Shown here in pieces: positions 7,082 through 47,242 of a stretch of 64,000 nucleotides of DNA. Each line of letters opens with the position of its first letter. Positions within the stretch are counted from its first letter, which is position 1. The notes under the pieces are model-generated. The model had not been told where the DNA came from. It did no database searches and was given only the letters and a program-made list of their open reading frames with translations. The position numbers and the translations under genes were made by a program. This DNA comes from Gemmatimonadota bacterium (GTDB lineage Bacteria; Gemmatimonadota; Gemmatimonadetes; Longimicrobiales; Gaopeijiaceae): assembly GCA_022560615.1 (NCBI GenBank), contig JADFSR010000013.1, forward strand, positions 29,595 to 93,594. Direction: 5' to 3'.

Positions 7082-7490
7082 GCTAGGGAGCCTCTGCACA
7101 AGTAGGGCGCGCCGCGCGACCCACACCTTCGGCGCGGGTGCCCGGTCTCGCGAGCTCAATAGTAGGCACGACGACGAGTCGTAGTTGTTCGGGCACCGCC
7201 GCCGAAGGCGGTGGTCCGAGGAGGAGAAACGACCTATTGGGCCGCGACCCCCCTGCGCCCAACATCATGAGTGACATGATCTACCAGGTCGTGGGTTACG
7301 GTGGCACGGCCCCATCTCCGTCGTTGGAGCTCCTAGGACCACCGTCTTCGACGGCGGTACCCGCGACGGCTATGGCGTCGTCGCACCGCGACCCGCGCTT
7401 TGCGCGGGTGCCCTATGGAGCCGTGGCGCCCGGGGACCCGTGCGTAAGCTCGGGTGGCGGCGTGCCCTACTTGTGCAGAGGCTCCCTGTA
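7082..7490 (-). repeat. MITE-like mosaic repeat, copy B (type-2 TIRs; core inverted relative to copy A)
   Basis: Left end: CTAGGGAGCCTCTGCACAAGTAGGGCGCGCCGCG. Right end: GGCGGCGTGCCCTACTTGTGCAGAGGCTCCCTGTAG. It contains the shared core GTGGGTTACGGTGGCACGGCCCCATCTCCGTCGTTGGAGCTCC and the GGGCACCGCCGCCGAAGGCGGTGGTCCGAG module. Confidence 0.85.
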
Positions 7491-7555
7491 GTTGGGCGAG
7501 ATCCCGGGAGCCACGACGGTCTGGGTCTCGCTTGGATCTGTGGGGGCGTCAGGCT

Positions 7556-7759
7556 CTACTTGTAGCTCTGCCCGATCGTGCGGCCGATGCTGATCTCGCC
7601 GTTGTCGATCCGGATGTTGAAGCCGCACTCCGGCCTGGAACACACCCACGCTTTATAGCGAATCGACGCCCCCTCTCTGCCGTAGTCCGAGAGCGGCAGC
7701 AAGAGACCGGCCTCGCACTTCAGACAAGGCGGAAATCCCTGCTCTCCCTCCATGTGCAA
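7556..7759 (-). CDS. small C4 zinc-ribbon protein (hypothetical)
   Basis: A 67-aa protein with CLKC ... CSRPEC cysteine pairs. Confidence 0.4.
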   Translation of the reverse strand: MHMEGEQGFPPCLKCEAGLLLPLSDYGREGASIRYKAWVCSRPECGFNIRIDNGEISIGRTIGQSYK

Positions 7760-7788
7760 CCCCTCCCCTCAGCGTGGCAACGATACGG

Positions 7789-8169
7789 TCAGAATCGAGC
7801 TTCCCAGGGATAACTCAGCTCGAAAGCCTCTTCGAAGTCGAACACGTCGGCGAAGTCCTCCGGGCGATCCTCGTCCTGCTTGACGAGGATCCCCTGCTCC
7901 ACCAACGCGAACACGACACTCCCGACATCCTCGGTGGCGCAAATCCCCCAGTGCTCCAGCACCATCCTCGCCATCGGACCAAAGCGCTCCAGAGCCAAGC
8001 GCCTCACCCCGTCCGCAAGCTCGCGCCCGGAAATGTGCCGGGGCTCGTCAAGCGAGTGGATGACCGAATGCAAGGCCGCGAGCACGAAGAAATACGCCCT
8101 CGTATCGAACCGAGGGTTTCGTTCCTGGAGCTGGTCCAGGACTTCGTCCGCGAATTGGAGTTCCGTCAT
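7789..8169 (-). CDS. hypothetical protein with acidic C-terminus
   Basis: The start was trimmed to MTELQFADEV (ATG at 8167-8169), because the track ORF's N-terminus runs into repeat C. No family recognised. Confidence 0.5.
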   Translation of the reverse strand: MTELQFADEVLDQLQERNPRFDTRAYFFVLAALHSVIHSLDEPRHISGRELADGVRRLALERFGPMARMVLEHWGICATEDVGSVVFALVEQGILVKQDEDRPEDFADVFDFEEAFELSYPWEARF

Positions 8170-8186
8170 GGGTAGAAATGTGGGTT

Positions 8187-8462
8187 TTAGAAGGGTGATC
8201 GGAAAGGGGGGTGGGCCGCGCGACCCACGCCTGACGGCGCGGGTGCCCCGCGCTTGCGCGCGTTCAGGCAAGGAACGACGAGGAGTCGTAGCCGAGCGGG
8301 CACCGCCGCCGAAGGCGATGGTCCGACGAGGAGAGACGCAGCATCAACCGCGCGGGCACCGACGCGAAGCGTTGGTCGCCATGTGCCCAACGCCATGGCT
8401 GATATGATCCTACGCCTCTGTGGGTTGGGGTGGCACGGCCCTCTTTCCGATCACCCTTCAAG
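8187..8462 (-). repeat. MITE-like repeat, copy C (type-1 TIRs, short variant lacking the left hairpin module, inverted)
   Basis: Left end: TTAGAAGGGTGATCGGAAAGGGGGGTGGGCCGCG. Right end: GGCACGGCCCTCTTTCCGATCACCCTTCAAG, which is degenerate. The body is the reverse complement of copy A's right two-thirds. Confidence 0.8.
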
Positions 8463-8498
8463 GGGGCCGTTCGCTAGTGGGAGCACCACATGACACGT

Positions 8499-9758
8499 CT
8501 ATCGCCCCGCCAATCCCACGTAGAGCGGGAAGGCGGTACAGAGATCCCTGACCTCGCCGCGAACCCCGGCGATCCGGTCTTCGTCGCTCGGTGCTTCCAG
8601 AACGTACGCGATCCAAGCCGCGATCTGCGCCATCTCGCTTTCCTTCATGCCACGGGAGGTGAGCGCCGGCGTTCCGATGCGAAGGCCGGACGTCACGAAC
8701 GGTGAACGTGTCTCCCCGGGTACCGTGTTCTTGTTCACGGTGATTCCGGAAGCCTCGAGCGCCGCCTCGGCTTCCTTGCCCGTCAGCTCGTCGTGGCTCG
8801 GCCGGAGATCCACGAGTAATAGGTGGGTGTCCGTGCCTCCGCTGACGAGGTGAAAGCCCCGCTCCACGAGGCCTTCTCCCAGCGCCTTCGCGTTGGCGAC
8901 GATCTGCTCGGAGTAGTCGCTGAATTCAGGCTGCAGCGCTTCGAGCAAGGCCACCGCCTTAGCCGCGATCACGTGCATGAGGGGACCGCCCTGCATGAAC
9001 GGGAAGACCGACTTGTCGATCGCCTTGGCGTGCTCTGCGCGGCAAAAGATCAGGCCGCCGCGGGGGCCCCGCAGCGTTTTGTGCGTCGTGGTGGTCACGA
9101 CGTCGGCGTGCGGAATCGGCGTGGGGTGGTGTCCCGTCGCCACGAGACCTGCGATGTGCGCCATGTCGACCAGGAAGCGTGCGTCGACTTCCCGCGCGAT
9201 TTCCGAGAAGGCGGCGAAGTCGATCGTGCGCGGGTACGCGCTCGCCCCGGCAATGATCATCTTCGGACGCTCGGCGTGCGCCTGGTCTCGAAGCTCATCG
9301 TAGTCGATGCGCCCGTCCTCTTCCCGTACTCCGTACGCGACAACCTCGAAGAGGCGGCCGCTGAAGTTCACCGGCGAGCCGTGCGTGAGATGACCGCCGT
9401 GACTGAGGTTCATCCCCAGGATCTTGTCCCCGGCCTCCAGGAAAGAGAAGTACGCCGCCATGTTGGCCTGCGCGCCCGAGTGCGGCTGCACGTTGACATG
9501 CTCCGCACCGAACAGCCGTTGGGCTCGGTCGCGGGCCAAATCCTCGGCGACGTCGACGAATTCGCAGCCGCCGTAGTACCGCTTCGATGGCAGACCCTCC
9601 GCATACTTGTTCGTCATCACGGTGCCCATCGCCTCAAGCACGGCCTCCGAGACGAAGTTCTCGCTCGCGATGAGCTCCAAGCCGTCGGCCTGCCGCCGGG
9701 CCTCGGAGATGATCGAGTCGAAGACGGCTGGGTCGGTCTTCTTCAGGCTGTCCATCAT
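8499..9758 (-). CDS. glyA: serine hydroxymethyltransferase
   Basis: [45 protein letters not shown]... has the PLP-lysine context [17 protein letters not shown]. The start was trimmed to the MM at 9758. Confidence 0.95.
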
Positions 9759-9789
9759 GACCGGCTGTCCATCACGAGAGGACCGTCCA

Positions 9790-10851
9790 TCACGTGCGGA
9801 ATGTCCGTTGCAGATGCCTGGCCTCCAAGATGCGCGCCTCCGCAACCTTGTTGGCCGCCACGTGCGGAGGAATCCCGTCGGTCCTGGCAAGCTCGAAAAT
9901 GCGGAGAAGCGTGCCGTAGATCTCCCCGGCCTTCCATTTGCTGCGATCCGCGGTCCAGTCGTTCAGCTCTCCATATACGTTGATGAGTCCACCGGCATTG
10001 ATCACGTAGTCGGGCGCGTACAGAATGCCCCGCTCGTGGAGCGCCGGCCCGTGAATCGGCCCGCGTGCCAACTGGTTGTTTGCGGCTCCCGCGACGATGT
10101 CGACTTGGAGCAAGTCGATCGTGTCGTCATTGACGACCGCGCCCAAAGCGCAGGGGGCGAAGATGTCGGCATCGACGGCATAGATGTCGTCCGCGGCAAC
10201 TGCCTTGGCCCCGAACTCCTCGGTGACCCGCGCCACGCGCTCCGGATCGATGTCGGCGACCGTGAGCCTGGCGCCTTCCTGCGCCAAATCCTCGCACAGG
10301 TAGTAGCCGACATGGCCGAGGCCCTGCACCGCGACGTGACGACCGGCCAAGGAATCGTCTCCGTACTTGATCGCTGCACACGCCTTGATGCCACGGTACA
10401 CCCCGTACGCGGTAACCGGAGACGGATCGCCCGAGCGTCCGTGCCGGCCGACCACGTATTCGGTCTCCATGCTGATGTATTCCATGTCGTCCGGCGACGT
10501 CCCCACGTCTTCGGCGGTGATGTAGCGGCCGTGCAGCGAGTCGACCGCACGGCCGTGCGCTCGGAAGATCATCTCCCGGTCTGCCAGGCGGTTGTCCCCC
10601 CAGATGACCGACTTGCCACCGCCGAGGTTGAGCCCGGCGATCGCTGCCTTGTACGTCATCCCTCGCGAGAGCCGGAGCGCGTCGATGACCGCGTCTCGAT
10701 CGTTCTCGTAGTTCCAGTAGCGGGTTCCGCCCAGCGCCGGTCCCATGGTGGTATCGTGGATCGCGATGATGCCTCTATATCCGAGGTCGGGATCGTTCCA
10801 GAACACGAGCTGCTCGTGCTTCTTCTCTGACATCAAGTCGAATATGTCCAT
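9790..10851 (-). CDS. Glu/Leu/Phe/Val dehydrogenase family enzyme, leucine-dehydrogenase-like
   Basis: Contains [10 protein letters not shown] and the Rossmann motif [13 protein letters not shown]. The start was moved to [10 protein letters not shown] (ATG at 10849-10851), because the track ORF's N-terminal extension is repeat D sequence. Confidence 0.85.
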
Positions 10852-10886
10852 TCTCGCTATGCGCTCACGCGTTCCGGGTTTTGGTG

Positions 10887-11299
10887 CCAGAAGGCTGTTG
10901 AAGAGGTACAGCGGGCCGCCACCCGTGCCTAGGCACGGGTCCCCGGGTGGCCACGGCCCCAGAGGGGAACCCGCGCCGCCGGCGCGGGTCGCGGGGCTTC
11001 GAAGGCATAGCCGTCGCGGGCACCGCCGCCGAAGGCGGTGGTCCGAGAAGCTCCAACGACGGAGATGGGGCCGTGCCACCGCAACCCACACACTCGTATG
11101 TCCTTTCAGCCATGGTGTTGGGCACATGGCGACCAACGCTTTCGCGTCGGTGCCCGCGCGGTTGATCCATCGTCTCTCCTCGTCGGACCACCGCCTTCGG
11201 CGGCGGTGCCCGCTCGGCTACGACTCCTCGTCGTTCCTTGCCTGAACGCGCGCAAGCACCATGTGCGCGGCCCACTGTACCTCTTCAACAGCCTTCTAG
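10887..11299 (+). repeat. MITE-like repeat, copy D (type-3 TIRs, with extra hairpin modules)
   Basis: Left end: CCAGAAGGCTGTTGAAGAGGTACAGCGGGCCGCC. Right end: GCGCGGCCCACTGTACCTCTTCAACAGCCTTCTAG. The internal core is shared with copy A. It carries two inverted GGGCACCGCCGCCGAAGGCGGTGGTCC modules. The right-terminal CTAG supplies the TAG stop of the acyl-CoA dehydrogenase gene. Confidence 0.85.
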
Positions 11300-12465
11300 T
11301 CGCTCGCCGCGTCCCGCAGCACTTCGCGGGCGATCACCACTCTCATGATCTCGTTGGTTCCTTCGTAAATCTCGGTGCCCTTGGCATCTCGCAGAAGCTG
11401 CTCGACCGGATAGTGACGCATGTAGCCGTACCCGCCAAAAATCTGAATCGCTTCGTCCGCAGACCAGGTCGCGGCCTCCGAGGCAGCGAGCTTCGCGATC
11501 GCCGCGCGGCTCGTTACCCCGTCGGTGCCGGTGCGGGAATGCCCCGATCCGCGGTTGGCCGCCTCGATGGCAGCGCCAGCGTGGTGGGCCAGTAGCCGCG
11601 CTCCTGTGAGCTTGCGCGCCATCTCCGCGAGCTTCGCCTGGGTCGCGCCGAAGTCCGCGATCGCCCGCCCGAACTGCTTGCGCTCCAACGCGTACTTGGC
11701 TGCATGCTCCAGGGCAGATCGCCCGATGCCCACCGCCTGGGCCGCGATGCCGGCGCGGCCGAGGTCGAGAGCTTCCAACGCGTAGGGGAGTCCGCGACCC
11801 AAGTCACCCAACAGCGCCTCGGCGCCGAGCTCCACGCCGTCGAGCTCCACACGCACGATTTGGGACGCCCGAAACCCCATCGTCGATTCCCGCGCGCCCA
11901 CGCTGTATCCGTCGGCATCAGGTGACACCAGAAACGCACTGATGCCGTCCTCCCCGGTGCGAGCGAAGACGACGACGAGCCCGGCGCGGCGGCCGTTGGT
12001 GACCCACCGCTTTTCGCCACTCAGCCTCCACCCGGTCTCAGATCGCTCCGCCTTCGTGCAGATCGAGCCCGCGTCACTGCCCGCCTCCGGCTCGGAGAGG
12101 GCAAACGCCCCGAGCAACGCACCCGAGGCGAGCCCAGGCAGCCAACGCCGCTTTTGATCGTCGCTGCCGTACCGCCGCAACATGCTGGCTACAGGTCCGT
12201 TGTGGATCGCCACCGAGAGCGCCACCGAGGCATCACCCCAGGCCAGCTCCTCGAGCACGAGCAAGTAGCTGTCCAGATCGAAGTCGAGCCCGCCGTACTC
12301 CTCCGGAATCAACATCCCGAGGAATCCGAGCTCCGCGAGCTTGTCGAACACCGCCTCGTCGAGGTCACGGGCGCTGTCCCACTCAGCGGATGCGCCTCGC
12401 AGCTCACCCTCGGCGAACTCGTGGGCGAGCGCCTGGATCCCGAGCTGTTCTTGCGTCCAAGTCAT
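11296..12465 (-). CDS. acyl-CoA dehydrogenase
   Basis: Full-length ACAD with the C-terminal motif GGYGYMRHYPVEQLLRDAKGTEIYEGTNEI. Confidence 0.9.
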   Translation of the reverse strand: MTWTQEQLGIQALAHEFAEGELRGASAEWDSARDLDEAVFDKLAELGFLGMLIPEEYGGLDFDLDSYLLVLEELAWGDASVALSVAIHNGPVASMLRRYGSDDQKRRWLPGLASGALLGAFALSEPEAGSDAGSICTKAERSETGWRLSGEKRWVTNGRRAGLVVVFARTGEDGISAFLVSPDADGYSVGARESTMGFRASQIVRVELDGVELGAEALLGDLGRGLPYALEALDLGRAGIAAQAVGIGRSALEHAAKYALERKQFGRAIADFGATQAKLAEMARKLTGARLLAHHAGAAIEAANRGSGHSRTGTDGVTSRAAIAKLAASEAATWSADEAIQIFGGYGYMRHYPVEQLLRDAKGTEIYEGTNEIMRVVIAREVLRDAASD

Positions 12466-12471
12466 CGTCGA

Positions 12472-13326
12472 CTACTCATAGCCGTAGAAGCCACGGCCGC
12501 TTTTTCGGCCATGCCAGCCCGCCGCGACGTACTTGCGCAGCAGCGGAGACGGCCGGTATCGGTCGTCCCCCAACTCACGGTGCAGCACTTCGAGGATGTT
12601 CAGGCAAGTATCCAGCCCGATCAGGTCGGCGAGCTCCAATGGACCCATGGGGTGGTTCAAGCCGAGCTTCATCACCGTGTCGATCGCCTCGGCTTCCGCC
12701 ACACCCTCCATGAGGGCGGTCACCGCCTCATTGATCATCGGCATGAGGACGCGGTTGGAAACGAAGCCCGGGAAGTCGTTCACCTCCACGGGAGTCTTCC
12801 CAAGCTCCTCGGCGAGCTCGAGGGTCGCTCGTGTCGTCTCGTCACTCGTGGCGAGACCGCGGATCACTTCGACGAGCTTCATGACGGGAACCGGATTCAT
12901 GAAGTGCATGCCGATCACCCTGTCGGGGCACGACGTATGCGCGGCGATCTCGGTGATCGAAATGGACGAGGTATTGCTCGCTAGAATCGTATCGGGCCCC
13001 ACGGCGTGATCGAGTGTCTCGAAGAGGTCGTACTTAAGCTGCGCCTTCTCTGGCACGGCCTCGATCACGAGATCGACGCCCTCGACGCCGGCCGCGAGGT
13101 CCGTGCCTGTCTCGATGCGGGCGAGCGTCGCATCACGGGCGGACTCGTCCAGAATTCCCTTCTCGACCTGCCGGGCGAGGTTCTTGACGATGGTTGCCGT
13201 CGCCCTCTCAAGCACCTCTCGCGAAACGTCGAGCAATCGCACTTCCCTACCGTGCTGAGCTGCGACATGGGCGATGCCGTTGCCCATCGTGCCTCCGCCA
13301 ACCACCGCGATTCGGTGGATACTCAT
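12472..13326 (-). CDS. hbd: 3-hydroxybutyryl-CoA / 3-hydroxyacyl-CoA dehydrogenase
   Basis: [21 protein letters not shown]... has the NAD-binding motif and a 3HCDH C-terminal domain. The start was trimmed to the ATG at 13326. Confidence 0.9.
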
Positions 13327-14315
13327 GCCCCGATCGCTCCTTGGGGCCCTCTGGGTCGGTGCAGGTCCGCTACAGCCAACGGCGACGTACGCAAAGCCGC
13401 CTCTCCAGGCCGCAGCCAGGGTCCCCACCAGCACGCAGCTGCAGCCGCCAAGACCACGACGGTCGCGAGCGCGCTGCCTTCAGGTCCGAATCCACCACCA
13501 CCGAGCCAATTCGGGCCCTGGGCGACGCCGTCGTAGAAGGGCGCGTCCAACAGCTCCAGACCACTTACCGGCACATCGGCCAGGTACCCGTGCCCCCAGT
13601 TCCAGCCCAGGTGCACCCCGGTGGCCCACCATAGACTTCCGGTGCGCAGGTACACAGCACCGAGCAACAGTCCCGCCGCCGCAATGTTCGCCAGCCCCAA
13701 CCACGTCACCTCGGGGTTGCCGAAGTGCAAAGCCCCGAAGGCGATCGACGTGACGAGCAAAGCCGTCGATGGGCCCCATGCCTCGGCGAGGGCCTGGAAG
13801 GGGTATCCCCTCAGCAGAGCTTCCTCGGCCGCTGCGGGCAGCGCCAGAAACAGCAACGAACTCGCGCCACCCACCAACCAGGCGCCAGCCGTGCCCGGCT
13901 GGGCTGACCAACGCAAACCGCCGAGGGCGGCCATTGCGAGCACCACCACCATCGCCACCACCACTCCGAGCCCGAGCCCCACCGCGGCTTCGCGTCCCGC
14001 GACCGGACTCAAGTAGAAACCGAGCGCGCCCGGAGCTCGCCCGTCGAGGGCAAGCGTGGCCCACCCTCCCACCAGCGCCCCGGAGAGCAGAGCCACCGAG
14101 CCACGCTGGGTCCCCGCCGGAAGAAGCATCCCCACGATCAGCCCGACGAGCGTCGCGGTGACCACGAAGAACAGAAGGCGCCAGCCCAGCCGGAGCCGCC
14201 CGCCCGTCCCTGTGAGGACCGCGCCTCGGAGCACTCCTTTGGGCAAGAGTGTTGGGGGCAAGGGTGTTACGCCTTCTCCACAGAGAGCGCCAGCGCGTGG
14301 CCGCCGCCGAGGCAA
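13323..14315 (-). CDS. CPBP-family (CAAX / Abi) intramembrane metalloprotease
   Basis: Contains [18 protein letters not shown] and HLGWNW motifs. The start is uncertain: the listed start overlaps the thiolase gene by 49 nt. Confidence 0.62.
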
Positions 14316-15481: not shown

Positions 15482-15605
15482 GAAAAGCCCAACTCGGTGT
15501 CGTTATTTGCCGATGTCGCCGGTGCTGAGTGCGCATAGTCGCTAACCCGAATGATACCGAAATCGGGGGGTGCGGTCACCTCGGCCAGAGTGGCCGTGCC
15601 GCAGT

Positions 15606-17336: not shown

Positions 17337-17548
17337 CTAGGAGGGTGATCGGAAAGGGGGGTGGGCCGCGCACATGGCGCTTGCGCGTGTTCAGCCAAGG
17401 AACGACGAGGAGGCGTAGTCATTCTACGGCGACGAGGAGAGACGCAGGATCAACCGCGCAACCGCCATGTGCCCAGCACCATGCATGACATGAACGTACG
17501 CGTCGGTGGGTTGGGGTGGCACGCCCCCCTTTCCGATCACCCTCCTAG
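17337..17548 (-). repeat. MITE-like repeat, copy E (type-1 TIRs, shortest variant, inverted)
   Basis: Left end: CTAGGAGGGTGATCGGAAAGGGGGGTGGGCCGCG. Right end: GGCACGCCCCCCTTTCCGATCACCCTCCTAG. Both ends carry the same A-to-G change (CTAGGAGGG). Confidence 0.85.
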
Positions 17549-17557
17549 ACCCTCCGA

Positions 17558-18199: not shown

Positions 18200-18233
18200 G
18201 GTTCAGGGGCCCACGGCGCAAGGAAAGCACCGC

Positions 18234-28193: not shown

Positions 28194-30556
28194 GAAGCAC
28201 CCCCGAAGCTCGCGACCGTTACCCCGGCCCCGCCCTCACCTGGGCCGCCCATCCGATGGACCTCGACCCTGGCGTCGTCGTCGAGCATCTCAGTTACACG
28301 CTTTCGGAGCGCACCTGTTCCCTTGCCATGGATGATGCGGAGTTCTCGGAGGTCCTCAAGAATCGCCTCGTCCAGTGCGCGCGACAATGCGAGCTCCATT
28401 TCGTCCACGCGCAGGCCGCGCAGGTCGACTTCCAACCGCGCTTGGCCTCGACTCGGCGCGCTCCACCCTCCCGCGCGGACCTCCGGCTCCGGAGAAGCGT
28501 CAACGACTTCCAGGTCGGACACCGGTACCTCGAGTCGAAACGCCCCGGCCTCCACCACCGCGCGCCCGGAACGCAGCTCGATCACCCCGCCCCGTGCTCC
28601 CGTCGCATGGATCCGCACTCGGTCGCCCACCTCGATGTCGACGTGGCGTCCCGCGCCTCGAGCCTCCGTACGGGTCTTCCTGTATCGGCCTGCCGCCCGC
28701 TCTATACGCCGACGCGCCTGACGCGTGCTTTCCTCCAGGTCAGCGCCCTGCTCGAACGAAGCGCGCAACTCCAAAATCGTGGCCTCGACCTCGGCGCGAG
28801 CCTCCAAGAGCAGTGTACGAGCTCCTTCCTGTGCACGGTTGTCCGCATTGCGCTCGAAGTCCCGAAGCGTGCGCTCCCGTCCCTCCATGCCCTTCTTCAG
28901 CCGGGCAGTCTGAGCGCGCTCCAGATCGAGTTGGTGCACGAGCTTCTCCGCTTCTCGCTCGAGCTGTTCGAGACGTGCGAGGGTTTCCTCCATGCGTGCC
29001 GCATCGTCCTCGCGGTACGTCTCGGCCCGATCGAGAACCACGGACGGGAATCCGAGTCGGCGTGCGATCGCAAGACCGTAGCTGCGACCCGGGCGCCCTT
29101 TCAGGAAACGGTAGGTGGGCTCCATCTGGTCGGCATCGAACTGCAAGGACGCGTTGACGATTCCGCTGCCGTCGCTGTCGAGGCGCTTGAGCTCTCCAAG
29201 GTGCGACGAGACGATGGTCGTCGCCTTCTTCGCTACCAGCTCCTCGAGTACCGAGCGAGCGAGAGCCGCTCCCTCCGCTGGATCTGTGCCAGTCCCCATC
29301 TCGTCGATCAGCACCAGCGACCGCGGTCCAGCTTCCGTCACGATGGCCGATAGGTTGGCGAGGTGCGCCGAGAAGGTGGAGAGCGAACGCACGATCGACT
29401 GCTCATCACCGATATCCGCGAAGAACGAGTCGAAGACGGGTAGGCGTGTCCCCGGCCCCACCGGCGGCACCACCCCGCTTTGCGCCAGCGCACATATCAG
29501 ACCCGTCGCCTTGAGGAAGACGCTCTTGCCTCCGGTGTTGGGGCCCGATACGACGACCGCTCGCTCCCCCTCATTGAGCTCGAGCTCGAACGGTACCACC
29601 GACGTCGCGCCATTCTCCAGCAGCAGCGGATGGCGACCGTCACGGATGTGGAGCGTGGGGTTGTCAATATCGGCGAGTTTCGGGACCGCGGCCCCCCACG
29701 ACAGCGCGGCACGAGCGCGAGCATAGAGGCTGTCGAAATCGACCAGCGCGTCGAGCGCCCCGCGCAACGCGTCGCGCTCCTGAGTGACCTCCGCTGTGAG
29801 CTCTCCGAGTACGCGCCGGATCTCTCTTCGCTCTTCGCGCTCCAGATCGCGCAGTTGGTTCATGAGAGCGATTGCCGCGGGGGGCTCCACGAACAACGTG
29901 GCACCCGACTGAGACTCGTCGTGCACGATGCCCCCGACTTCACCCTTTCCTTCCCGGCGTACCGGAATGACGTATCGCCCGTCTCGAATCGTCACCGAAC
30001 CGTCCGCCACGACGAAGCGCTCGGGAAGCGTGGTCACGAACGCCTCGAGCTTCTTCACGATTCTGGCGTGCGCACCTCGCAGCTTACCCCGAATCTTCTT
30101 GAGCTCCCGAGATGCGCCGTCGAGCACATGGCCTTCCGCGTCGACACACCGCCCGATCGCGTCCTCGATTTCCCTCCGTGACACCAGCATCTCGGTGATG
30201 GTCAGGAGCTCGGGATAGCGGCCGTCACGCGCATCGAACTCCGACGAGAGACGGCGAGACGAGTTGAGTAGAACCCCCGCCCCGTGCAACTGCGTCGGCT
30301 CGAGCACCACGCCCTCTGCGGTGAGTTGCTCGAGCGTGTTCGTCAGATCGGGGATGGGGGGCATGCCCCAGTCCGGGTCTTCCTCGACGAAGCGCATCGC
30401 CGCACCGACTCGCCCGAGCTCTCGGGCAATTGTCGCGGGGTCGGTCTCTGGGCGTAAAGCGAGTACGCGATCACGGGCGAGGTCACTGCCCGCGCGCGCC
30501 GCCACGCACTCGAGCACCCGACCAAACTCGAGAACCTCGAGCGCGTGCTCGCTCAC
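28190..30556 (-). CDS. mutS2: endonuclease MutS2 (Smr domain)
   Basis: A MutS ATPase domain (GPNTGGKS) and a C-terminal Smr domain (LRIIHGKGTGALR). Confidence 0.92.
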   Translation of the reverse strand: MSEHALEVLEFGRVLECVAARAGSDLARDRVLALRPETDPATIARELGRVGAAMRFVEEDPDWGMPPIPDLTNTLEQLTAEGVVLEPTQLHGAGVLLNSSRRLSSEFDARDGRYPELLTITEMLVSRREIEDAIGRCVDAEGHVLDGASRELKKIRGKLRGAHARIVKKLEAFVTTLPERFVVADGSVTIRDGRYVIPVRREGKGEVGGIVHDESQSGATLFVEPPAAIALMNQLRDLEREERREIRRVLGELTAEVTQERDALRGALDALVDFDSLYARARAALSWGAAVPKLADIDNPTLHIRDGRHPLLLENGATSVVPFELELNEGERAVVVSGPNTGGKSVFLKATGLICALAQSGVVPPVGPGTRLPVFDSFFADIGDEQSIVRSLSTFSAHLANLSAIVTEAGPRSLVLIDEMGTGTDPAEGAALARSVLEELVAKKATTIVSSHLGELKRLDSDGSGIVNASLQFDADQMEPTYRFLKGRPGRSYGLAIARRLGFPSVVLDRAETYREDDAARMEETLARLEQLEREAEKLVHQLDLERAQTARLKKGMEGRERTLRDFERNADNRAQEGARTLLLEARAEVEATILELRASFEQGADLEESTRQARRRIERAAGRYRKTRTEARGAGRHVDIEVGDRVRIHATGARGGVIELRSGRAVVEAGAFRLEVPVSDLEVVDASPEPEVRAGGWSAPSRGQARLEVDLRGLRVDEMELALSRALDEAILEDLRELRIIHGKGTGALRKRVTEMLDDDARVEVHRMGGPGEGGAGVTVASFGGAS

Positions 30557-30571
30557 GCGGGGTTCACCCTT

Positions 30572-30833
30572 CTAGAAGGGTGATCGGAGAGGGGGGCGGG
30601 CCGCCACCCGTGCTGTCGCACGGGTCCCCGAGTGCCACGGCCCCCAGAGGGCACCCGCGCATTGCGCGGGTCGCGGAGGGGCGAAGGCGTAGCCGTAGCG
30701 GGCACCGCCGCCGAAGGCGGTGGTCCGAGACGCTCCAACGACGGAGATGGGGCCGTGCCACCCCAACCCACAGCCATGCGTGCCTTTTCATCAAGGTGTT
30801 GGGCACCACCCCCCTCTCCGATCACCCTTCTAG
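30572..30833 (+). repeat. MITE-like repeat, copy F (type-1 TIRs, right module deleted)
   Basis: Left end: CTAGAAGGGTGATCGGAGAGGGGGGCGGGCCGCC. Right end: CCCCCCTCTCCGATCACCCTTCTAG. Both ends carry the same GGAGAGG variant. The terminus supplies the last codons (L-E-G) and the TGA stop of yqeY. The left flank extends the palindrome (TCACCCTTCTAGAAGGGTGA). Confidence 0.85.
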
Positions 30834-32333: not shown

Positions 32334-32384
32334 ACGCTAGCAGCCCGTGGTGGAAGTACCACGGGCTGCCAGGCATGAAGCCTG

Positions 32385-38815: not shown

Positions 38816-38818
38816 CGC

Positions 38819-39043
38819 TCAGCGTTCCAGGCCAGTACGTGCGCGAACCGAGACCCGGGTCTGGGGCAGCCCCGGGCGCCCCAGGAACAGGTAACTCCGT
38901 AGGATCAGCTCCTCGACGGCGTCCGTCCCACCGCGCTCAGCCGCGACCCGCATCGCAGATTCGAGCTCTTCGTCGCGACGCGAGGCGAGCACAGCGCTGA
39001 GGCGTACGAGCACTTCGTGGGCATCGGAGGCCGGCGCAGTCAT
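38819..39043 (-). CDS. small hypothetical protein
   Basis: A 74-aa ORF between obg and the asparaginase gene. No homology recognised. Confidence 0.25.
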   Translation of the reverse strand: MTAPASDAHEVLVRLSAVLASRRDEELESAMRVAAERGGTDAVEELILRSYLFLGRPGLPQTRVSVRARTGLER

Positions 39044-40035: not shown

Positions 40036-40131
40036 TCGTCCGCCAAGTCCATGGATCCGAGATCGTGGTCACCTGTAAGGAAGCGGCCCCAACGGGGCGT
40101 GGGCATGACGGAATCGGACCGGCCGCCGAAT

Positions 40132-40439
40132 CTAGAAGGGTGATCGGGAAGGTGGGTGGGCCGCGTTGGAGTGCCACGGCCCCATATCCTAGGCGGAGCT
40201 TCGAAGACATAGCCGTCGCTACGTCGAGGAGCTCCAACGACGGAGATGGGGCCGTGCCACCCCAACCCACAGAGGCGTAAGATCATATCAACCATGGTGT
40301 TGGGCACATGGCGGTTGCGCGGTTGATCCTGCGTCTCTCCTCGTCACCGTAGCTCGGCTACGACTCCTCGTCGTTCCTTGCCTGAACGCGCGCAAGCGCC
40401 ATGTGCGCGGCCCACCCACCTTCCCGATCACCCTTCTAG
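40132..40439 (+). repeat. MITE-like repeat, copy G (type-1 TIRs, full-length)
   Basis: Left end: CTAGAAGGGTGATCGGGAAGGTGGGTGGGCCGCG. The right end is its exact reverse complement over 34 nt. Flanked by CTAG on both sides. About 90% identical to copy A. Confidence 0.88.
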
Positions 40440-40460
40440 GCACGTGGGTCCGCCACAGTG

Positions 40461-42083
40461 TCAGGAGCCCGAGTCTTGCTCGTTCTCCGCGGACGCGACT
40501 TGTGCGATCAGATCCGCCGGGTTCGCAGCACCCCGTAGCAGCTCGACCGCCTTCATCAGCTGGGTGTCGTGCCTCCGGGACTGCTCGAACTGCCCAGCGT
40601 CACCCCACGCCTGCAGGGCGATCTCTCGCTCCATGCGGTAGCGAACGAAGCGCTGGGCCGCCATGAATTCGTCGTGGTCGACTTCCGCGCGCCACTCGGG
40701 AAGCGTCTCGTAGAAGTCCTGGATCTCGGCGTCACGCACGACGAAGCCCGGTTGGGCATTCGGGTGGTCCTGAACGAATGAGACGGCGTAGTTGAAGAGC
40801 GCCGTGCTGAATTCTCCCGCCCGACGGAAGACCCGGTAGACCGCTTCGGCCTCTTGGGGCGACAACGTCTCTGGAGATACGAAGAGATCGGGAGTGATAC
40901 CACCGCCCCCTAACAGCGTGCGGCCACCGAGCGACTCGTACTCAGGGCGTCCATCGAGGACGGTCGGTATCACGATCTTGCCCGAGATCGCGAGCTCGTG
41001 CTCCGCCACATCGACGACGGCATCGGGATCACGGTCGATCGAACGACCGACGGGCGTATACCACCGCGCCGTAGTCAGCCGCAATACGTCTCCGCCCGTG
41101 AGCCGGAAAAGACTCTGCACGGAGCCTTTGCCGTACGTCGTCTCACCGACGATCACCGCCCGGTCGTGATCCTGGAGCGCTCCTGCGATGATCTCCGACG
41201 CCGAGGCACTGGTGCCGTCGACCAGCACGACGATGGGCAGATCCTTATATCGATCCGGTGACGACGATGAGTACGTCGCGTTTTGGTTCGCGGCCCTGCC
41301 CCTCGTTTCGACGATGGGGAGGCCTGCTTCGAGGAACAGATCGGAGACCGCGATCCCCTCGTCGAGCAAGCCACCCGGGTTCCCGCGCAGATCCAGGATC
41401 AGTCCGTCGAGCCCTTCCCCACGCAGCGAGTCGACGGCAGCTCGGATCTCGCTTGACGACGTCTCACTGACGGTCTGCAGCGGCACATAGCCGATCCCGG
41501 GCTCCAGCATGAGCGCGAAGGGCACCGCACGCAGTCGGATCGTCGCCCGCTTGATGGTGAATTCGATCGGCTCCTCGACTCCTGGGCGAAGCATCTTCAC
41601 CGTGACTTCAGTACCGGGACGGCCGCGCAGCAGCTCGACCGCCTGGTCCGTGGTCATCGTGTCCGCGGGAATCCCCTCGATCTCGAAGAACTTGTCACCA
41701 CCGCGAATCCCGGCGCGTTGGCCCGGAGTGCTCGAAATCGGACTGACAACCGTAACCCAACCGCCGCGGTCGATGACCTCGAGACCGATCCCTTCGTACT
41801 CTCCTTCAATGCGGATGCTCAGGTTCTCGTATTCGTCGGCGGGCAAGAACGACGAGTGCGGATCGCCGAGGTCGCGGATGAGTCCGTCGATCGCGGCGTT
41901 GTAGAGACCGGCGGGATCGACGTCGTCTACGAAGCTCGTCTCCACGTGCTCTACGACTTCCTGGAGCACGCGCACACGGACGTAAATGTTCGCGGCTCGG
42001 TCGACGCCCTCCTGCAATAACCAGCCGCCTGCCATCACCGCAAAGGCGACCACGACCACCGGCGCAAAGACCCCTCGCCTCAC
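40461..42083 (-). CDS. ctpA: C-terminal processing peptidase (S41 family)
   Basis: N-terminal TM helix, a PDZ domain and the S41 catalytic motif (GTSASASEI...TYGKGSVQ). Confidence 0.9.
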   Translation of the reverse strand: MRRGVFAPVVVVAFAVMAGGWLLQEGVDRAANIYVRVRVLQEVVEHVETSFVDDVDPAGLYNAAIDGLIRDLGDPHSSFLPADEYENLSIRIEGEYEGIGLEVIDRGGWVTVVSPISSTPGQRAGIRGGDKFFEIEGIPADTMTTDQAVELLRGRPGTEVTVKMLRPGVEEPIEFTIKRATIRLRAVPFALMLEPGIGYVPLQTVSETSSSEIRAAVDSLRGEGLDGLILDLRGNPGGLLDEGIAVSDLFLEAGLPIVETRGRAANQNATYSSSSPDRYKDLPIVVLVDGTSASASEIIAGALQDHDRAVIVGETTYGKGSVQSLFRLTGGDVLRLTTARWYTPVGRSIDRDPDAVVDVAEHELAISGKIVIPTVLDGRPEYESLGGRTLLGGGGITPDLFVSPETLSPQEAEAVYRVFRRAGEFSTALFNYAVSFVQDHPNAQPGFVVRDAEIQDFYETLPEWRAEVDHDEFMAAQRFVRYRMEREIALQAWGDAGQFEQSRRHDTQLMKAVELLRGAANPADLIAQVASAENEQDSGS

Positions 42084-42175
42084 GATTCCACCCTCCTGCT
42101 CACGTTCGACCGATCCATTCTGATACCGAGCACTCCCCGGCAGCCCATCGCAAACCCTCTCGGTTATACCGCGCC

Positions 42176-42808
42176 CTACCGGAAGGTTTCAGGGAAACAC
42201 GTCTCGAGAAGTCCACGGATCGTCGCGTGCACGTCCTCGGGCGCCCCACGGGCGCTCAACACTTGAACTCCCGGCTCCGTCTCCGCCAACGCAAGATACC
42301 CTTCACGCACGGACTGGAGGAAGCCGTATCCCTCCTTTTCGATGCGATCCGGTATCATGCCATCTCGACGCTGACGTTCGCTGGCGGCTTCGGCCGGCAG
42401 ATCGAGCACGATGTACAGGTCCGGCCTCAGACCACCCGTAGCGATCCGCAGGCCGTCCCTCACGTCGTCCAAATCCAGCCCCCGACCGTAGCCCTGGTAC
42501 GCGAGCGTGGAGAGCGCAAAGCGATCCGCCAATACGACCTGGCCCTTTGCGAGCGCGGGCCGAACGACGTCGCGCACGAACGCCGCCCGCGCCGCGAGGA
42601 TGAGCAAGAGCTCGGACTCAGCAGGCATCTCCAGGTCGTCGCGACCGAGCACGACCTCGCGGATCGCCTCACCCACCGGAGTACCCCCGGGTTCCCGCGT
42701 GAGGATGTGCGGGATTTCGCGCGCAGCCAGCCAAGACGACAGGAGGGCGGCCTGCGTGGTCTTGCCCACGCCGTCGGCGCCCTCCAATACGATGAAGCGC
42801 CCCGCCAT
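42176..42808 (-). CDS. tmk: dTMP (thymidylate) kinase
   Basis: P-loop (LEGADGVGKTTQ) and TREPGGT motif. Confidence 0.9.
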   Translation of the reverse strand: MAGRFIVLEGADGVGKTTQAALLSSWLAAREIPHILTREPGGTPVGEAIREVVLGRDDLEMPAESELLLILAARAAFVRDVVRPALAKGQVVLADRFALSTLAYQGYGRGLDLDDVRDGLRIATGGLRPDLYIVLDLPAEAASERQRRDGMIPDRIEKEGYGFLQSVREGYLALAETEPGVQVLSARGAPEDVHATIRGLLETCFPETFR

Positions 42809-42811
42809 GGT

Positions 42812-44125
42812 CTAGTCGTAGTACTCCACACCCAGGTGAGTCGCCATTTCCTCGCGCATCATCCAGCGAAGCGTGTTTTTCAGCTTCCAATGCTGAATGA
42901 AGAGGTCATGCTCCGGATAGAGGCCAGGCGCGGTCTGCGGCGCCTTGAAGTAGAACGACAGCCACTCCTGGATCCCACTCAGGCCCGCGCGCGACGCGAG
43001 GTCGAGGAAGATCGCCAGGTCCAGCACGATGGGCGCGGCGAGGATCGAGTCGCGGCAGAGGAAATCGACCTTGATCTGCATGGCGTACCCCATCCATCCG
43101 AAGATGTCGATGCTGTCCCACCCTTCTTTGTTGTCGCCACGCGGCGGGTAGTAGTTGATCCGCACTTTGTGGTACATGTCACCGTACAGCTTCGGGTAGA
43201 CGTCCGGCTGCAGAATGTGCTCGAGCGCGCCGAGTTTCGACTCCTCCTTCGTCTTGAACGATTCGGGGTCGTCGAGGACCTCGCCATCGCGATTGCCGAG
43301 GATGTTCGTGCTGAACCACCCCGACAAACCGAGCATGCGCGTCTTGAAGCCCGGGGCGAGGATCGTCTTCATGAGGGTCTGGCCCGTCTTGAAGTCTTTG
43401 CCACCAATGGGCACGCTGTTGTCGGCCGCGAGCTGCTCGAGCGCGGGAATGTCCACCGATAGGTTCGGGGCGCCGTTGGCGTACGGTACGCCCTCCATCA
43501 GCGCCGCATACGCGTACAGCATACTGGGCGCGATCCCCGAGTCACCGTCGCACATGGCCTGCTCGAACGACCCGAGGGTCTCATGCACTGCACTCGGGCG
43601 TAGGAAGACCTCGGTCGAGGCGCACCAGATCATCACGAGGCGGTCGCAGCCGTTCTCCTCCTTGAAGCGGCGGATGTCGGCACGGATCTCCTCGGCCTGT
43701 TCCATTTTGGTGCCCGACTTCTTGTTCGGGCCGTCGAGCTTCTTCACGTAGTCGGTGTCGAAGGCTGCCGACATCGGCTTGATGGCAGACAGAAAGTCCC
43801 GGATCGGGTCGAGGTGCTTCTCTTTTTGGAGAACCCCCGCGTTCACCGCGCTCGCGTAGCCGTCGTCGGGAATCGGGTCCCAGGTGCAGAAAACGAGGTC
43901 GTCGAGACCGGCGAGTGGCACGAAATCCTGGATGAGCGGAGCGCGGCCATCGGTACGCTTGCCCAACCGAATCGTGTTCATCTGGGTCAAGGAGCCGATA
44001 GGCTCCGCGAGTCCGCGGCGCACGGCTTCCACGCCGGCAACGAACGTCGTGGCGACGGCCCCGAAGCCGGGCAGAAGTACGCCGAGTTTGCCCTCGGCCG
44101 GACGGATCTCAGTAGGCTGCTTCAC
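42812..44125 (-). CDS. ino1: inositol-3-phosphate synthase (myo-inositol-1-phosphate synthase)
   Basis: Full-length MIPS (GVLLPGFGAVATTFVAGV...SGWFSTNILGNRDG). Confidence 0.88.
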   Translation of the reverse strand: MKQPTEIRPAEGKLGVLLPGFGAVATTFVAGVEAVRRGLAEPIGSLTQMNTIRLGKRTDGRAPLIQDFVPLAGLDDLVFCTWDPIPDDGYASAVNAGVLQKEKHLDPIRDFLSAIKPMSAAFDTDYVKKLDGPNKKSGTKMEQAEEIRADIRRFKEENGCDRLVMIWCASTEVFLRPSAVHETLGSFEQAMCDGDSGIAPSMLYAYAALMEGVPYANGAPNLSVDIPALEQLAADNSVPIGGKDFKTGQTLMKTILAPGFKTRMLGLSGWFSTNILGNRDGEVLDDPESFKTKEESKLGALEHILQPDVYPKLYGDMYHKVRINYYPPRGDNKEGWDSIDIFGWMGYAMQIKVDFLCRDSILAAPIVLDLAIFLDLASRAGLSGIQEWLSFYFKAPQTAPGLYPEHDLFIQHWKLKNTLRWMMREEMATHLGVEYYD

Positions 44126-44163
44126 TGAAAAGCCTCACGTTTGAGTTGATCGTTGAACTGGCC

Positions 44164-44520
44164 CTACGGAACGATGATCCGGCTCCGGGCGCCCTCTTCG
44201 ATGCCCCTTGCCACGGTGTCGTTCACCTTCATCATGACCTTCTCGAAGTTGGCCTGTGCCGAAATCAGGCGCTGGAAGCCCGCCTTGATCTGAAGTTCCT
44301 CGGCAGCCTCCGTGTAAACCTTCTTCGCGTCCTCATCGGGTTCCTGACCGGCAAGCATCGACGCCTCCAGGCGCTGCTCGAGCGCCTCGAGGCGATTCCG
44401 AAGCTCGACCAACTCCCGGTCCTCATCCGCGGCATCCATCGCCCGTTTGAGCGCCTGATACTCGTCGGTCCGCGCCAGGGCATTCCCTAGGTCGCGCGCC
44501 TTTTCATCGATGCCCATCAT
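44164..44520 (-). CDS. YlbF/YmcA-family regulator (UPF0342)
   Basis: A 118-aa helical protein (ALARTDEYQALKRAMDAAD...). Confidence 0.65.
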   Translation of the reverse strand: MMGIDEKARDLGNALARTDEYQALKRAMDAADEDRELVELRNRLEALEQRLEASMLAGQEPDEDAKKVYTEAAEELQIKAGFQRLISAQANFEKVMMKVNDTVARGIEEGARSRIIVP

Positions 44521-44545
44521 ACCCTCATGTCTCCGGTCCGGAATC

Positions 44546-45472
44546 TCAGTTCGTCATCGCCCGACGCGTGAGCACCATCCGCTCACGTCCCGTTAGGTCC
44601 CTTCGCACGCGTGCGTCGACGTACTCGCCCGTATCCTCCAGCATGGCCACCACCGGCCCTGCCTGGCCCACGCCTACTTCCAGCGCCAGCAGCCCGCCCG
44701 GCCGCAAGCGCGAACCCGCGCCTACGATGATGGCCCTTAGCGCCACCAGCCCGTCCGGCCCCGCGAAGAGCGCGTCACCGGGCTCCCACTCGCGCACTTC
44801 GGGCTCGAGCGACGGAGCCTCCCCCTCCGCAACGTACGGCGGATTGGACACCACGAGGTCGAAGACCTCCGCCTCCGAGACAGGCTCGAAGTACGAACCC
44901 AGCCGGAACTCCACCTTCTCACCCAAGCCAGCGGCCTCCGCATTGCAGCGGGCTACCTCCAGCGCACCCTCGGAGCTGTCTGTCGCCACGACCAACTCGA
45001 ACGGCCCTTCCAGCACGAGCGACAGCGCGATCGCCCCCGACCCGGTACCGACATCGAGCCCGCGCGCCTGAGCACCTGCGTGAGCCCCGGCCCACTCGAG
45101 TACCTCATCGAGAAGGATCTCGGTCTCGGGACGGGGGATCAGCACCCGCCCATCGACCTCGAGATCCAACTCCCGGAAGGCCGCACGCCCTAGAATGTAC
45201 TGAAGTGGCTCCCTTGTTGCGCGCCGCTTGAGCAGTGGCCGGTACTGGTCCAGCTCCGCGGCGACCAGGGGCCGGTCGAACTGCAGATAGAGCTCCAGGC
45301 GCCCGAGCCCCAATACGTCTGCGAGCAGATGCTCGGCGTCGAGACGACCACGCACGATACCTTTGCCCTCCAGGTACTCTCCGCTCCACTCGATCATGCG
45401 GAGTACCGTCCAGCGGTCCTTGCCCTGCGCGCCCAGCGGCGACGAAGGTAGTCGGTCGAGGTCCTCACTCAT
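44546..45472 (-). CDS. prmC: release-factor glutamine N5-methyltransferase
   Basis: Carries the NPPY motif (VVSNPPYV). It sits downstream of prfA. The start was trimmed to MSEDLDRL. Confidence 0.88.
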
Positions 45473-46574
45473 CGTCGGCCCCGAGTCGCTCTTGCTCCTC
45501 CGCAAGCCGGAGCGACGCGATCAGCTCGTCGAGTGTCCCGTCCAGCACATCGTTGAGCCGGTGGAGCGTTAGGCCGATCCGATGATCCGTAACCCGCCCC
45601 TGCGGGAAATTGTACGTGCGGATCTTGGCCGACCGGTCCCCCGTGCCCACCTGGGTCTTCCGTTCCCTCGCGCGCTCGGCTTCCCGCTCAGCGATCATCC
45701 GATCGAGAAGGCGGCTGCGCAGCACCTTCATCGCCTTCGCCTTGTTCTTGTGCTGCGACTTTTCGTCCTGGCAGGTTACGACGAGCTTCGACGGGAGGTG
45801 CGTAATGCGTACGGCGGAGTCCGTCGTGTTCACCGACTGGCCGCCGGGACCCGAAGACCGAAAGACATCGATTCGCAGGTCGTTGGGATCGATCTCCAGA
45901 TCGACCTCCTCGGCCTCGGGCAACACCGCTACGGTGGCCGCCGAGGTGTGGATCCGCCCTTGGCTCTCGGTCGCGGGGACACGCTGAACGCGATGCACAC
46001 CCGACTCGTACCGCAGTCGACCATACGCGCCACTTCCACGCACTGTGAAGATCACTTCCTTGATCGAGCCTGGGATGCCCTCAGAGAGGCTCATTACCTC
46101 GACAGACCAGCGGTTGCGCTCCGCAAATCGGCGATACATGCGCAGAAGATCCGACGCGAAGAGGCCTGCTTCATCGCCGCCCGTACCGGCGCGGATCTCG
46201 ATGACCGCCGCGCGATCCGCTAGTGGGTCCGGTGGAATGAGCAGCTCACGCACCTGAAGCGCGAGCTGCTCGATGCGCTTGCCGAGTACCGAGAGCTCCT
46301 CTTCGGCGAGCGCCTTCATTTCGGGATCGTCGGTCTCCTCCAGCAACTCGGCCGCGCTGCGCTGATCTTCTACCGCGGTACGCTGCTCACGGCTGGCGGT
46401 GACGATCCGGTCTAGACGCGCTCTCTCCCGCCCGAGATCCTTCAGCCGCTCAGGGCTCGAGAGCACTTCCGGGCTTGCGAGCTCCGAGTCGAGCTCTGGA
46501 AGGCGCAGTTCCGCCTCTTCGAGGCGCTGCAGCAGACGGGCGTCGACGTTCGGGGACTTCATGAGATGGGCCAT
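45465..46574 (-). CDS. prfA: peptide chain release factor 1
   Basis: PCRF domain and the GGQ motif ([21 protein letters not shown]). Confidence 0.95.
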
Positions 46575-46596
46575 GACTCAGGAGGCCCTGGCCCCC

Positions 46597-46806
46597 TCAC
46601 TTCGCGGCGACCGTCCCGTACATCTTCTTGAAGCGGTCGACGCGGCCCGCGGTGTCTACTAGACGCTGCTTGCCGGTGTAGAAAGGGTGGCACACCGAGC
46701 AAATCTCCACGTGGATCTCGTCCACGGTGGACATCGTCTCGAAGCGGTTGCCGCACGCACAGACGGCGGTCGCCGCCATGTATTCGGGATGGATGCCCTT
46801 CTTCAT
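46597..46806 (-). CDS. rpmE: 50S ribosomal protein L31
   Basis: MKKGIHPEY...CxC...[12 protein letters not shown]. Confidence 0.93.
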
Positions 46807-46937
46807 GTCCTACTCCAAGCACCTATGTGGAACGGGCCTGGGCGCTAACAGGCCCGGCCCGATTGACTTGCAGGGACATTTTGTACGCGACGCCCCCAGT
46901 ACAGCCTAGAAAAGTTAAATGTCTCGGGCGGAGGGGT

Positions 46938-47242
46938 CTAGGGAGCCTGTGAACAAGTAGGGCGCGCCGCGCGCAGGGGTCTCGCGAGTTCAAGAGTAGG
47001 AAGGACGACGAGTCGTAGCCGTAGCTACGGCGAGGAGGAGAGACGACCTATTGGGCCGCGACCCCCCTGCGCCCAACACCGAGTGTGACAATCGTACCGG
47101 TTTGTGGGTTACGGTGGCACGGCCCCATCTCCGTCGTTGGGGCTCCTAGCCGTAGCGACGGCTATGGCGTCGTCGCCCCGCCTAGGATATGGAGCCGTGG
47201 CACCGTAACGCGGCGTGCCCTACTTGTTCAGAGGTTCCCTAG
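46938..47242 (-). repeat. MITE-like repeat, copy H (type-2 TIRs, inverted core)
   Basis: Left end: CTAGGGAGCCTGTGAACAAGTAGGGCGCGCCGCG. Right end: GCGGCGTGCCCTACTTGTTCAGAGGTTCCCTAG, immediately followed by the dcd ATG. Shares copy B's architecture, with TGAACAAG at both ends. Confidence 0.85.

Follow-up and report, generated by a model that had tools for sequence, protein, structure and literature searches.

The 64,000-nt stretch analyzed here (hereafter "the window": positions 29,595 to 93,594 of contig JADFSR010000013.1 from a Gemmatimonadota bacterium, approximately 65% G+C) carried eight copies and two stubs of one repeat family, amounting to 3.9% of the window, in which base-pairing, and not sequence, was conserved in the outer 22 bp of the terminal stem. 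These elements were small (200-410 nt), putatively non-coding and multi-copy, and showed a fold-back anatomy: a 31-33-bp terminal stem formed by the two arms (31-33 nt each, the "terminal inverted repeats" or TIRs), closing a junction with two or three hairpins. The best explanation, to which we give about an even chance as a whole, is that the repeats are an undescribed family of non-autonomous TA-inserting transposons from Gemmatimonadota, i.e. [quoted passage not shown]

Four end types were distinguished (T1, TAGAAGGGTGATCGGAAAGGGGGGCGGGCCGCG; T2, TAGGGAGCCTCTGCACAAGTAGGGCGCGCCGCG; T3, TAGAAGGCTGTTGAAGGAGTACAGTGGGCCGCG; and T4, TAGCAGCCCGTGGTAGAAGTACAGTGGGCCGCG), all joined to one common interior, in which a variable spacer separated hairpin 1 from hairpin 2. 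The arm measured 33 nt in every copy, from the flanking TA to ...CCGCG; T1 arms were purine-rich, and the arms were not self-complementary, T3 having just CTGT...ACAG. Hairpin 1 contained the conserved sequence CCAACGACGGAGATGGGGCCGTGCCACC, and the CCTAGG within this hairpin was invariant across copies. The hairpins were assembled from exchangeable small modules, among them optional modules of about 28 nt (GGGCACC...GGTGGTCC), which were ruled out as free-standing repeats because within the window they were found solely inside elements. Stems were conserved and the spacer and loops varied, with the spacer between hairpins differing strongly among otherwise near-identical copies.

Covariation of the two arms and of the internal stems

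A preliminary description of this DNA had reported that substitutions in one TIR of a copy were matched by the complementary change in the other, and had proposed, as one of three possibilities, that the two ends were coupled by base-pairing. The correlation between left and right variants was checked in 53 complete copies (from the window and 51 genome loci), each left arm being set in one 33-nt frame with the reverse complement of its right arm, and in this larger set it was strong. At stem positions 3-24, 55 cells carried a mirrored non-consensus state (28 distinct states) and 54 carried a change in one arm only. Shuffling the right arms within each end type gave 15.7 ± 3.9 mirrored cells (maximum 28), and none of the 2000 shuffles reached the observed 55. 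The same shuffle applied to rare variants alone gave 3.2 ± 1.8 mirrored cells vs. 26 observed.

The folded structure behaved in the same way. In an alignment of 33 copies, both sides changed in 22 of the 28 terminal-stem pairs, with 97.1% of the cells paired; the predicted consensus fold of these 33 copies comprised 78 pairs, 32 of them changing on both sides, with 97.5% of the cells paired. The observed covariation was reached in none of 500 shuffles, and sliding the partner column by 1-3 positions lowered pairing to 32-46%. The internal hairpins co-varied too: hairpin 2 showed five pairs changing on both sides and occurred as two fully compensated versions. Copy G as a whole folded far better than its shuffles (z of -12.6 and -13.5 on the two DNA strands). 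Mirroring above chance was thus confirmed and extended over the whole element, and the proposed coupling of the ends by base-pairing was borne out by the fold (z about -13 on either strand) and by the covariation of the internal hairpins.

Mirrored and unmirrored variants differed in their distribution. Among the one-arm variants of the outer stem, nearly all were private (43, against 6 that were shared), but of the 28 mirrored states, 10 were found in copies at different loci (Fisher p=0.02). Transposition therefore carries mirrored variants along, and mismatches only rarely. The ratio of transitions to transversions was 19:9 in mirrored states and 33:16 in one-arm states, an equal spectrum that fits one mutation followed by copying and not a two-step compensation via wobble pairs.

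The mismatches that remained showed no strand asymmetry. G·T and A·C mismatches in the terminal stem were balanced (13:13), and remained so when copies were oriented by the sense strand of the neighboring gene (17:17 at position 25 and 13:18 at positions 3-24; the gene strand at the flanks was called by GC3 minus GC2, the G+C content of third minus second codon positions). Over all stems, read on the core strand (the strand of hairpin 1), the ratio of G·U to A·C was 92:27, driven by a few subfamily-wide positions (27 vs. 20 columns). Scans of the elements for sigma-70-like promoters and intrinsic-terminator-like sites found none. At the gathering threshold, the sole Rfam match in the whole window was a tRNA gene (RF00005, 68.7 bits, at 622-695 on the - strand), with no family for the elements, and copy G gave no Rfam match up to E=1. 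Because mismatches were balanced, both strands folded equally well and no Rfam match was obtained, a DNA hairpin is favored over a structured RNA: the pairing constraint appeared alike for the two strands, an indication of a DNA hairpin or cruciform and not of one RNA.

Copies in the window, insertion sites and decay

The elements of the window, together with one unoccupied target site, were as follows:

3484-3788, + strand: copy A, T1; terminal stem, hairpin 1, spacer and hairpin 2 all present; enolase and acyltransferase genes on either side
7084-7490, - strand: copy B, T2 (TAGGGAGCCTCTGCACAAGTAGGG...); the longest copy (407 nt), with five additional small hairpin modules
8188-8461, - strand: copy C, T1; a deletion derivative in which hairpin 1 has no left half and one arm has no inner part
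10888-11298, + strand: copy D, T3 (TAGAAGGCTGTTGAAGAGGTACAG...); mirrored variant GAAGAGG
17338-17547, - strand: copy E, T1; mirrored A4>G (TAGGAGGG at both ends); a deletion derivative
30559-30572, no strand assigned: T1 right-end stub of 14 nt (GTTCACCCTTCTA), directly next to the TA that borders copy F on the left
30573-30832, + strand: copy F, T1; mirrored A17>G (GGAGAGG); without hairpin 2; upstream of a MutS2 gene
32338-32371, no strand assigned: T4 stub of 34 nt (TA, GCAGCCCGTGGT GGAAGT ACCACGGGCTGC, CA); outer arms retained and interior deleted; between two convergent genes
40133-40438, + strand: copy G, T1; two mirrored changes (A16>G and G21>T); full complementarity between the arms at 40133-40165 and 40406-40438; missing from the orthologous site in the relative L031
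42812-42815, no strand assigned: unoccupied CTAG target (CCATGGTC-TA-GTCGTAG), overlapping a stop codon; filled in L031 and empty in L022
46939-47241, - strand: copy H, T2; mirrored C14>A (TGAACAAG at both ends) and two one-arm differences

The mirrored changes attributed to copies E, F, G, B and H in the preliminary description were all present as stated, and all lay within the range given for them (7082-47242); copy A fell outside this range, and the two stubs had gone unrecognized. In copy E, CTAGGAGGG occurred at 17337 (+) and 17540 (-) only, window-wide, the other T1 ends having CTAGAAGGG, and this mirrored variant recurred at a different locus of a related genome (L010). Both ends carried GATCGGAGAGGGG in copy F, GATCGGGAAGGTG / GGGAAGGTG in copy G and GGGAGCCTCTGCACAAGTAGGG / CTGCACAAG in copy B. 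The 34-nt arms of copy G (40132-40165 and 40406-40439), described as exact reverse complements, were indeed 100% complementary, and the unmirrored mismatches of copy A were also found: three in its arms (GATCGAAAAGGGG vs. GATCGGAAAGGGA), with TA at both flanks. With the T4 stub, all four end types are therefore present in this window.

Copies were situated at gene boundaries. One end of copy B lay 4 nt from the start codon of a YjeF-type gene, the right CTAG of copy D overlapped the stop codon of an acyl-CoA dehydrogenase gene, and copy H stopped 1 nt short of the ATG with which a dCTP deaminase-like gene starts. Ten proteins of the window scanned against Pfam were housekeeping enzymes.

Outside the window, an exact 22-mer of hairpin 1, independent of the ends, matched 51 loci: 50 from Gemmatimonadota genomes assembled from metagenomes, mostly Longimicrobiales, and one from a record titled Proteobacteria. 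The T3 end matched at least 120 metagenome stretches, and no matches to the T3 and T1 ends were found among viral contigs. No account of such repeats in Gemmatimonadota came up in a search of the literature.

The elements were mobile, with presence/absence polymorphism between related genomes, and inserted at TA, usually within CTAG, with duplication of the TA. A TA-bounded filled site in L102 (TCCG-TA-element-TA-GGATC) corresponded to an empty site in L028 (TCCC-AA-GGATC), revealing a 2-bp duplication, and a reciprocal clean pair of filled and empty sites was found between L028 and L102. Copy G was absent from the orthologous region of L031 (approximately 86% identical), which in turn was filled at the site that is bare in the window (42812-42815) and in L022. 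TA insertion with TA duplication is the signature of IS630/Tc1-mariner transposition. Of 106 element sides, 67 had a TA at a distance of 0-2 nt. Many T3 copies of Longimicrobiales lacked a flanking TA, their flanks often being TG, CA or CG, and in T3 copies of this order (L012, L028, L031, L039 and L042, among others) the right end often had one extra unpaired nucleotide between ...CCTTC and TA. ISY100 likewise inserts at TA with TA duplication and has about 13% atypical flanks (PMC2170065). CTAG was three-fold scarcer in the window than expected from base composition (64 observed vs. approximately 207 expected), and 12 of these sites were element ends.

Decayed forms were common. In many mini remnants, one arm was kept and just 6-11 nt were left of the second, the two being joined at microhomologies such as ACAG (L056, L081, L097, L117, L170, L074 and L141, and L054 and L100 at orthologous sites), and some of the remnants stood where a relative had the full element. 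Such stubs are the expected product of hairpin-stimulated deletion. A different arrangement was seen at two unrelated loci (window 30559-30572 and L050), where a right-end stub (GTTCACCCTTC-TA) abutted the left end of a full copy, creating a palindromic junction (CACCCTTC-TA-GAAGGGTG at copy F). At window 51489-51506, the CCTTCTAGAAGG palindrome stood bare, with no element. Such arrangements may stem from insertion at the TA next to resident ends. Exchange or inversion between inverted repeats was evident from the chimeric copy L011, which had a T3 left end and a T4 right end, and from L018 and L045, in which the arms were swapped relative to the core as though the interior had been flipped.

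Candidate partners and IS630-family ends

Several loci were considered as autonomous partners and rejected. In L124, where T3 ends were 1.8 kb apart, an IS110-family insertion sequence (L124:445-1911, metagenome contig Ga0066369_10014804, PF01548 and PF02371) was nested inside a T3 copy. Its insertion point was in hairpin 2, between ...CGTCGTCG(G)TCC and TTGTCTGAACG..., and this IS110-family insertion sequence may land specifically in the MITE interior. The solo T3 ends of L171 and L111 had no adjoining transposase, and L014 was a truncated copy. L148, found by tblastn with an approximate IS630 transposase sequence as query, contained an IS630-family insertion sequence of about 1.48 kb (L148:69-1551) in the TA flanking a MITE right end, with open reading frames for a 357-amino acid DDE_3/HTH transposase and a second protein of 102-104 amino acids; its ends differed from T1-T4, and six more look-ups gave like ends.

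These IS630-family insertion sequences (L148 and L172-L181) were all flanked by C-TA-G and belonged to the same populations as the MITEs. Their ends (TAGTGC...CCC.AAGT..TGGTACA) had in common with T2-T4 only TAG, A15, AAGT at 17-20 and G24, a resemblance no more than suggestive of an IS630-family partner for the elements.

The same insertion sequences served as a control for the behavior of protein-bound ends. The two ends of each were only 67-87% alike, and lineage-specific states (TGGTACA, TGGAACA or GATACA) occurred at both ends, tracking the divergence of the transposase. Protein-bound ends thus do co-evolve, and the premise of the preliminary description that protein-recognized TIRs drift independently does not hold; part of the difference among the four end types could be due to different transposases. 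What sets the MITEs apart from this control is the near-perfect pairing of their ends, the many private or low-frequency mirrored states within end types, and the covariation of the internal stems, to which no transposase binds.

Origin and maintenance of matched arms

We favor the view that the arms are kept matched by templated correction of one arm from the other or by selection for pairing. Either single strand would fold into a hairpin or cruciform during replication, repair or transposition. Quasi-palindrome template switching, or arm-to-arm conversion over a short stretch, would then transfer a change in one arm to its partner arm in the snapped-back strand, and the lineages with paired outer stems would be those that go on spreading or persisting, mobilized by an IS630-family transposase. 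We infer the templating step, the need for pairing and the IS630 mobilization from the patterns described above. Template switching corrects quasi-palindromes (PMC7202029) and can yield compensatory changes in one event (PMC8794818), and such one-step matching, together with conversion between palindrome arms, fits the mutation spectrum obtained here.

Several observations weigh against this explanation. The arms lay about 240 nt apart, farther than in classic quasi-palindromes, for which switching has been documented mostly in short hairpins. Stem position 25 was mismatched in 45 of the 53 copies (85%), with C in one arm and T in the other in either polarity (e.g. in the region of window 40157/40414), and position 29 was mismatched in 21 of the 53 copies, behaving like position 25 in one subfamily; these mismatches were inherited by many copies, so conversion cannot sweep the whole stem. 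The stems also changed slowly in place. The flanking TA was lost on 37% of the sides vs. about 2% one-arm change per outer-stem site, and at the same genomic sites the elements could be more alike than their flanks: 95% vs. 81% between L058:2043-2348 and L110:1671-1881, and 90% vs. 58-73% between L104 and L136. Templating alone is insufficient to account for this slow change, and purifying selection or homogenization between copies is also needed. The core strand was opposite to the neighboring genes in 56 of the 77 callable cases (56:21, p=8e-5), a bias not expected from a DNA structure that is symmetric between strands. No autonomous element with T1-T4 ends was found in the loci examined. 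Finally, the IS630/Tc1-mariner mechanism is a double-stranded cut-and-paste without a hairpin (PMC2170065), which offers no grounds for pairing between the ends. Three observations (the conserved mismatch, change that is slow with respect to the flanks, and the orientation bias) are unexplained by the templating model and would allow for homogenization between copies or for purifying selection on a function exercised at the site.

Simple neutral decay after insertion was rejected: copies without TA would be expected to be more mismatched, but the opposite was found (0.5-0.8 arm mismatches per copy vs. 1.6). A reading that we consider possible but rather doubtful is that the terminal stem is recognized by its shape, the outer 22 bp having any sequence as long as the arms match, and that the near-universal mismatch of position 25 (C/T) serves as a landmark together with a handful of invariant G residues; the elements would then be a long-lived, self-correcting, vertically maintained fold-back replicator or a DNA structure adopted by the host.

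Selection at the level of RNA, with the element co-transcribed with its neighbors as a structured module (a processing or stabilizing hairpin, as proposed for ERIC, Correia and bcr1), would account for stems that are kept while spacer and loops vary, for the position of copies at gene boundaries and their conservation in place beyond that of the flanks, and for the orientation bias with respect to genes. It would also agree with the slightly better RNA fold of the non-core strand in 30 of 40 copies, this being usually the gene-sense strand, and with two U·G positions of hairpin 1 in 13 copies. We nevertheless regard it as unlikely: the wobble asymmetry that it predicts was absent from the ratios given above, transversions were equally common in mirrored and single changes, neither an Rfam match nor promoter- or terminator-like sites were found, and one quarter of the copies had the other orientation, with an even 4:4 split in the window. 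The core was also on the locally C-rich strand (38:19), and the biases in orientation, C-rich strand and fold together indicate that some strand-dependent effect, of transcription or replication, exists; this effect is not visible in the stem mismatches. Among the three mechanisms envisaged in the preliminary description (pairing in an RNA or DNA stem, templating of one end from the other, and frequent conversion within the element), the evidence thus leans against a strand-specific RNA stem and, given the mismatch at position 25, against blanket arm-to-arm conversion.

Concerted evolution, in which conversion or replacement among copies and the reuse of scarce CTAG sites would spread mirrored states inherited from a few sources, is distinctly unlikely as the whole explanation, since it does not originate mirrored states, 18 of 28 being private in the sample, and since the divergence of spacers among near-identical copies argues against blanket homogenization. 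Several observations are nonetheless in its favor. At one shared site, the elements of L040:216-457 and L168:1414-1783 were only 83% alike and differed in module content within flanks that were 96-98% identical, which points to replacement or conversion, whereas the L058/L110 pair, more similar than its flanks at deeper divergence, points to constraint or homogenization. The chimeric and arm-swapped copies and the three-fold under-representation of CTAG are also in line with it. An ordinary MITE, in which the same transposase binds both ends so that matched ends co-evolve in each subfamily without pairing, would agree with the lineage-specific ends of the IS630-family insertion sequences, with the register (TAG...AAGT...G) that these share with the four end types, and with the several mirrored variants that were subfamily markers at two or more loci. 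This is improbable: a separate transposase variant would be required for each of the approximately 28 mirrored states, the covariation of internal hairpins would go unexplained, IS630 ends were 67-87% alike vs. about 97% pairing in the elements, and one-arm variants would be expected to pass on as frequently as mirrored ones, which was not the case. Least probable is a REPIN-like element, a single-stranded hairpin moved by a Y1/HUH (RAYT-like) transposase that needs pairing for recognition. The compensatory hairpin changes, persistence, conservation in place and singlet-like stubs have parallels in REPINs (PMC3116915), and an outer stem that varies freely but keeps its conserved mismatch and a handful of invariant G residues would suit such recognition; the TA duplicated at insertion and arms that are not REP-type palindromes speak against it. 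Transposition by Y1 enzymes (IS200/IS605) is not known to make a target duplication. No Y1 transposase was seen, though no systematic search for one was made.

Comparison with known systems supports the placement among IS630/Tc1-mariner MITEs. Like the ISY100/IS630-derived elements and the TA-flanked, hairpin-forming Correia/NEMIS repeats of Neisseria, the elements were small and multi-copy, had TIRs, duplicated TA, stood at gene boundaries and folded into a long hairpin; they differed in carrying four end sequences on one body and a modular hairpin interior. Compared with the related autonomous IS630 insertion sequences, they showed near-perfect pairing, with covariation at 22 of 28 stem positions. 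In Correia repeats, end variants (alpha and beta types) combine freely and are not known to be mirrored. Compensatory changes are common on the two sides of the mobile hairpin in REPINs (PMC3116915), which also resemble the present elements in their long persistence and decayed single-arm remnants. REPINs differ in having REP palindromes as arms, a linked RAYT gene, a length of about 100 nt and no TA duplication, in contrast to the non-palindromic arms, TA duplication and 200-410 nt seen here. In bcr1 of the Bacillus cereus group, compensatory changes preserve a cruciform-like fold (PMC3184786), and bcr1 and the ERIC repeats of enterobacteria are likewise mobile intergenic repeats with such changes; their constraint has been reported at the RNA level, whereas mismatch polarity showed no strand preference here, and host phylum, sequence and target duplication differ as well (bcr1 having 5-bp repeats). 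The Gemmatimonadota elements therefore had the tested features of IS630-type MITEs except for a matching autonomous partner, which was not found; they departed from REPINs in arms and target duplication and bore no signature specific to RNA. Compensatory change in hairpin-forming mobile repeats was already known from REPINs and bcr1, and it is its degree that is unusual here; the earlier suggestion of "more than an ordinary MITE" is in this respect only partly borne out.

In these repeats from a little-studied phylum, four features were unusual in degree: four end types on one body, 22 of 28 covarying stem pairs, an inherited mismatch, and conservation in place. At about 4% of the window and at the boundaries of housekeeping genes, the elements will bear on how Gemmatimonadota genomes are assembled and annotated and on where gene starts are called, and they serve as landing sites for other insertion sequences (of the IS110 and IS630 families). 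The many independent copies, the four end types, the conserved mismatch and the filled and empty sites between complete Longimicrobiales genomes provide enough events to separate the models computationally. If recognition by shape were true, the family would be a TA-inserting counterpart of REPINs, with conservation in place stronger than that of the flanks. The most interesting question raised is why ends should pair under the standard IS630 mechanism. If the pairing of the ends is what is preserved, the family would be a natural test case for the long-standing question of what keeps long inverted repeats matched in bacterial chromosomes, one-step templated correction or selection, and would ask whether the end of a TA-inserting transposon can be read by its structure and not by its sequence.

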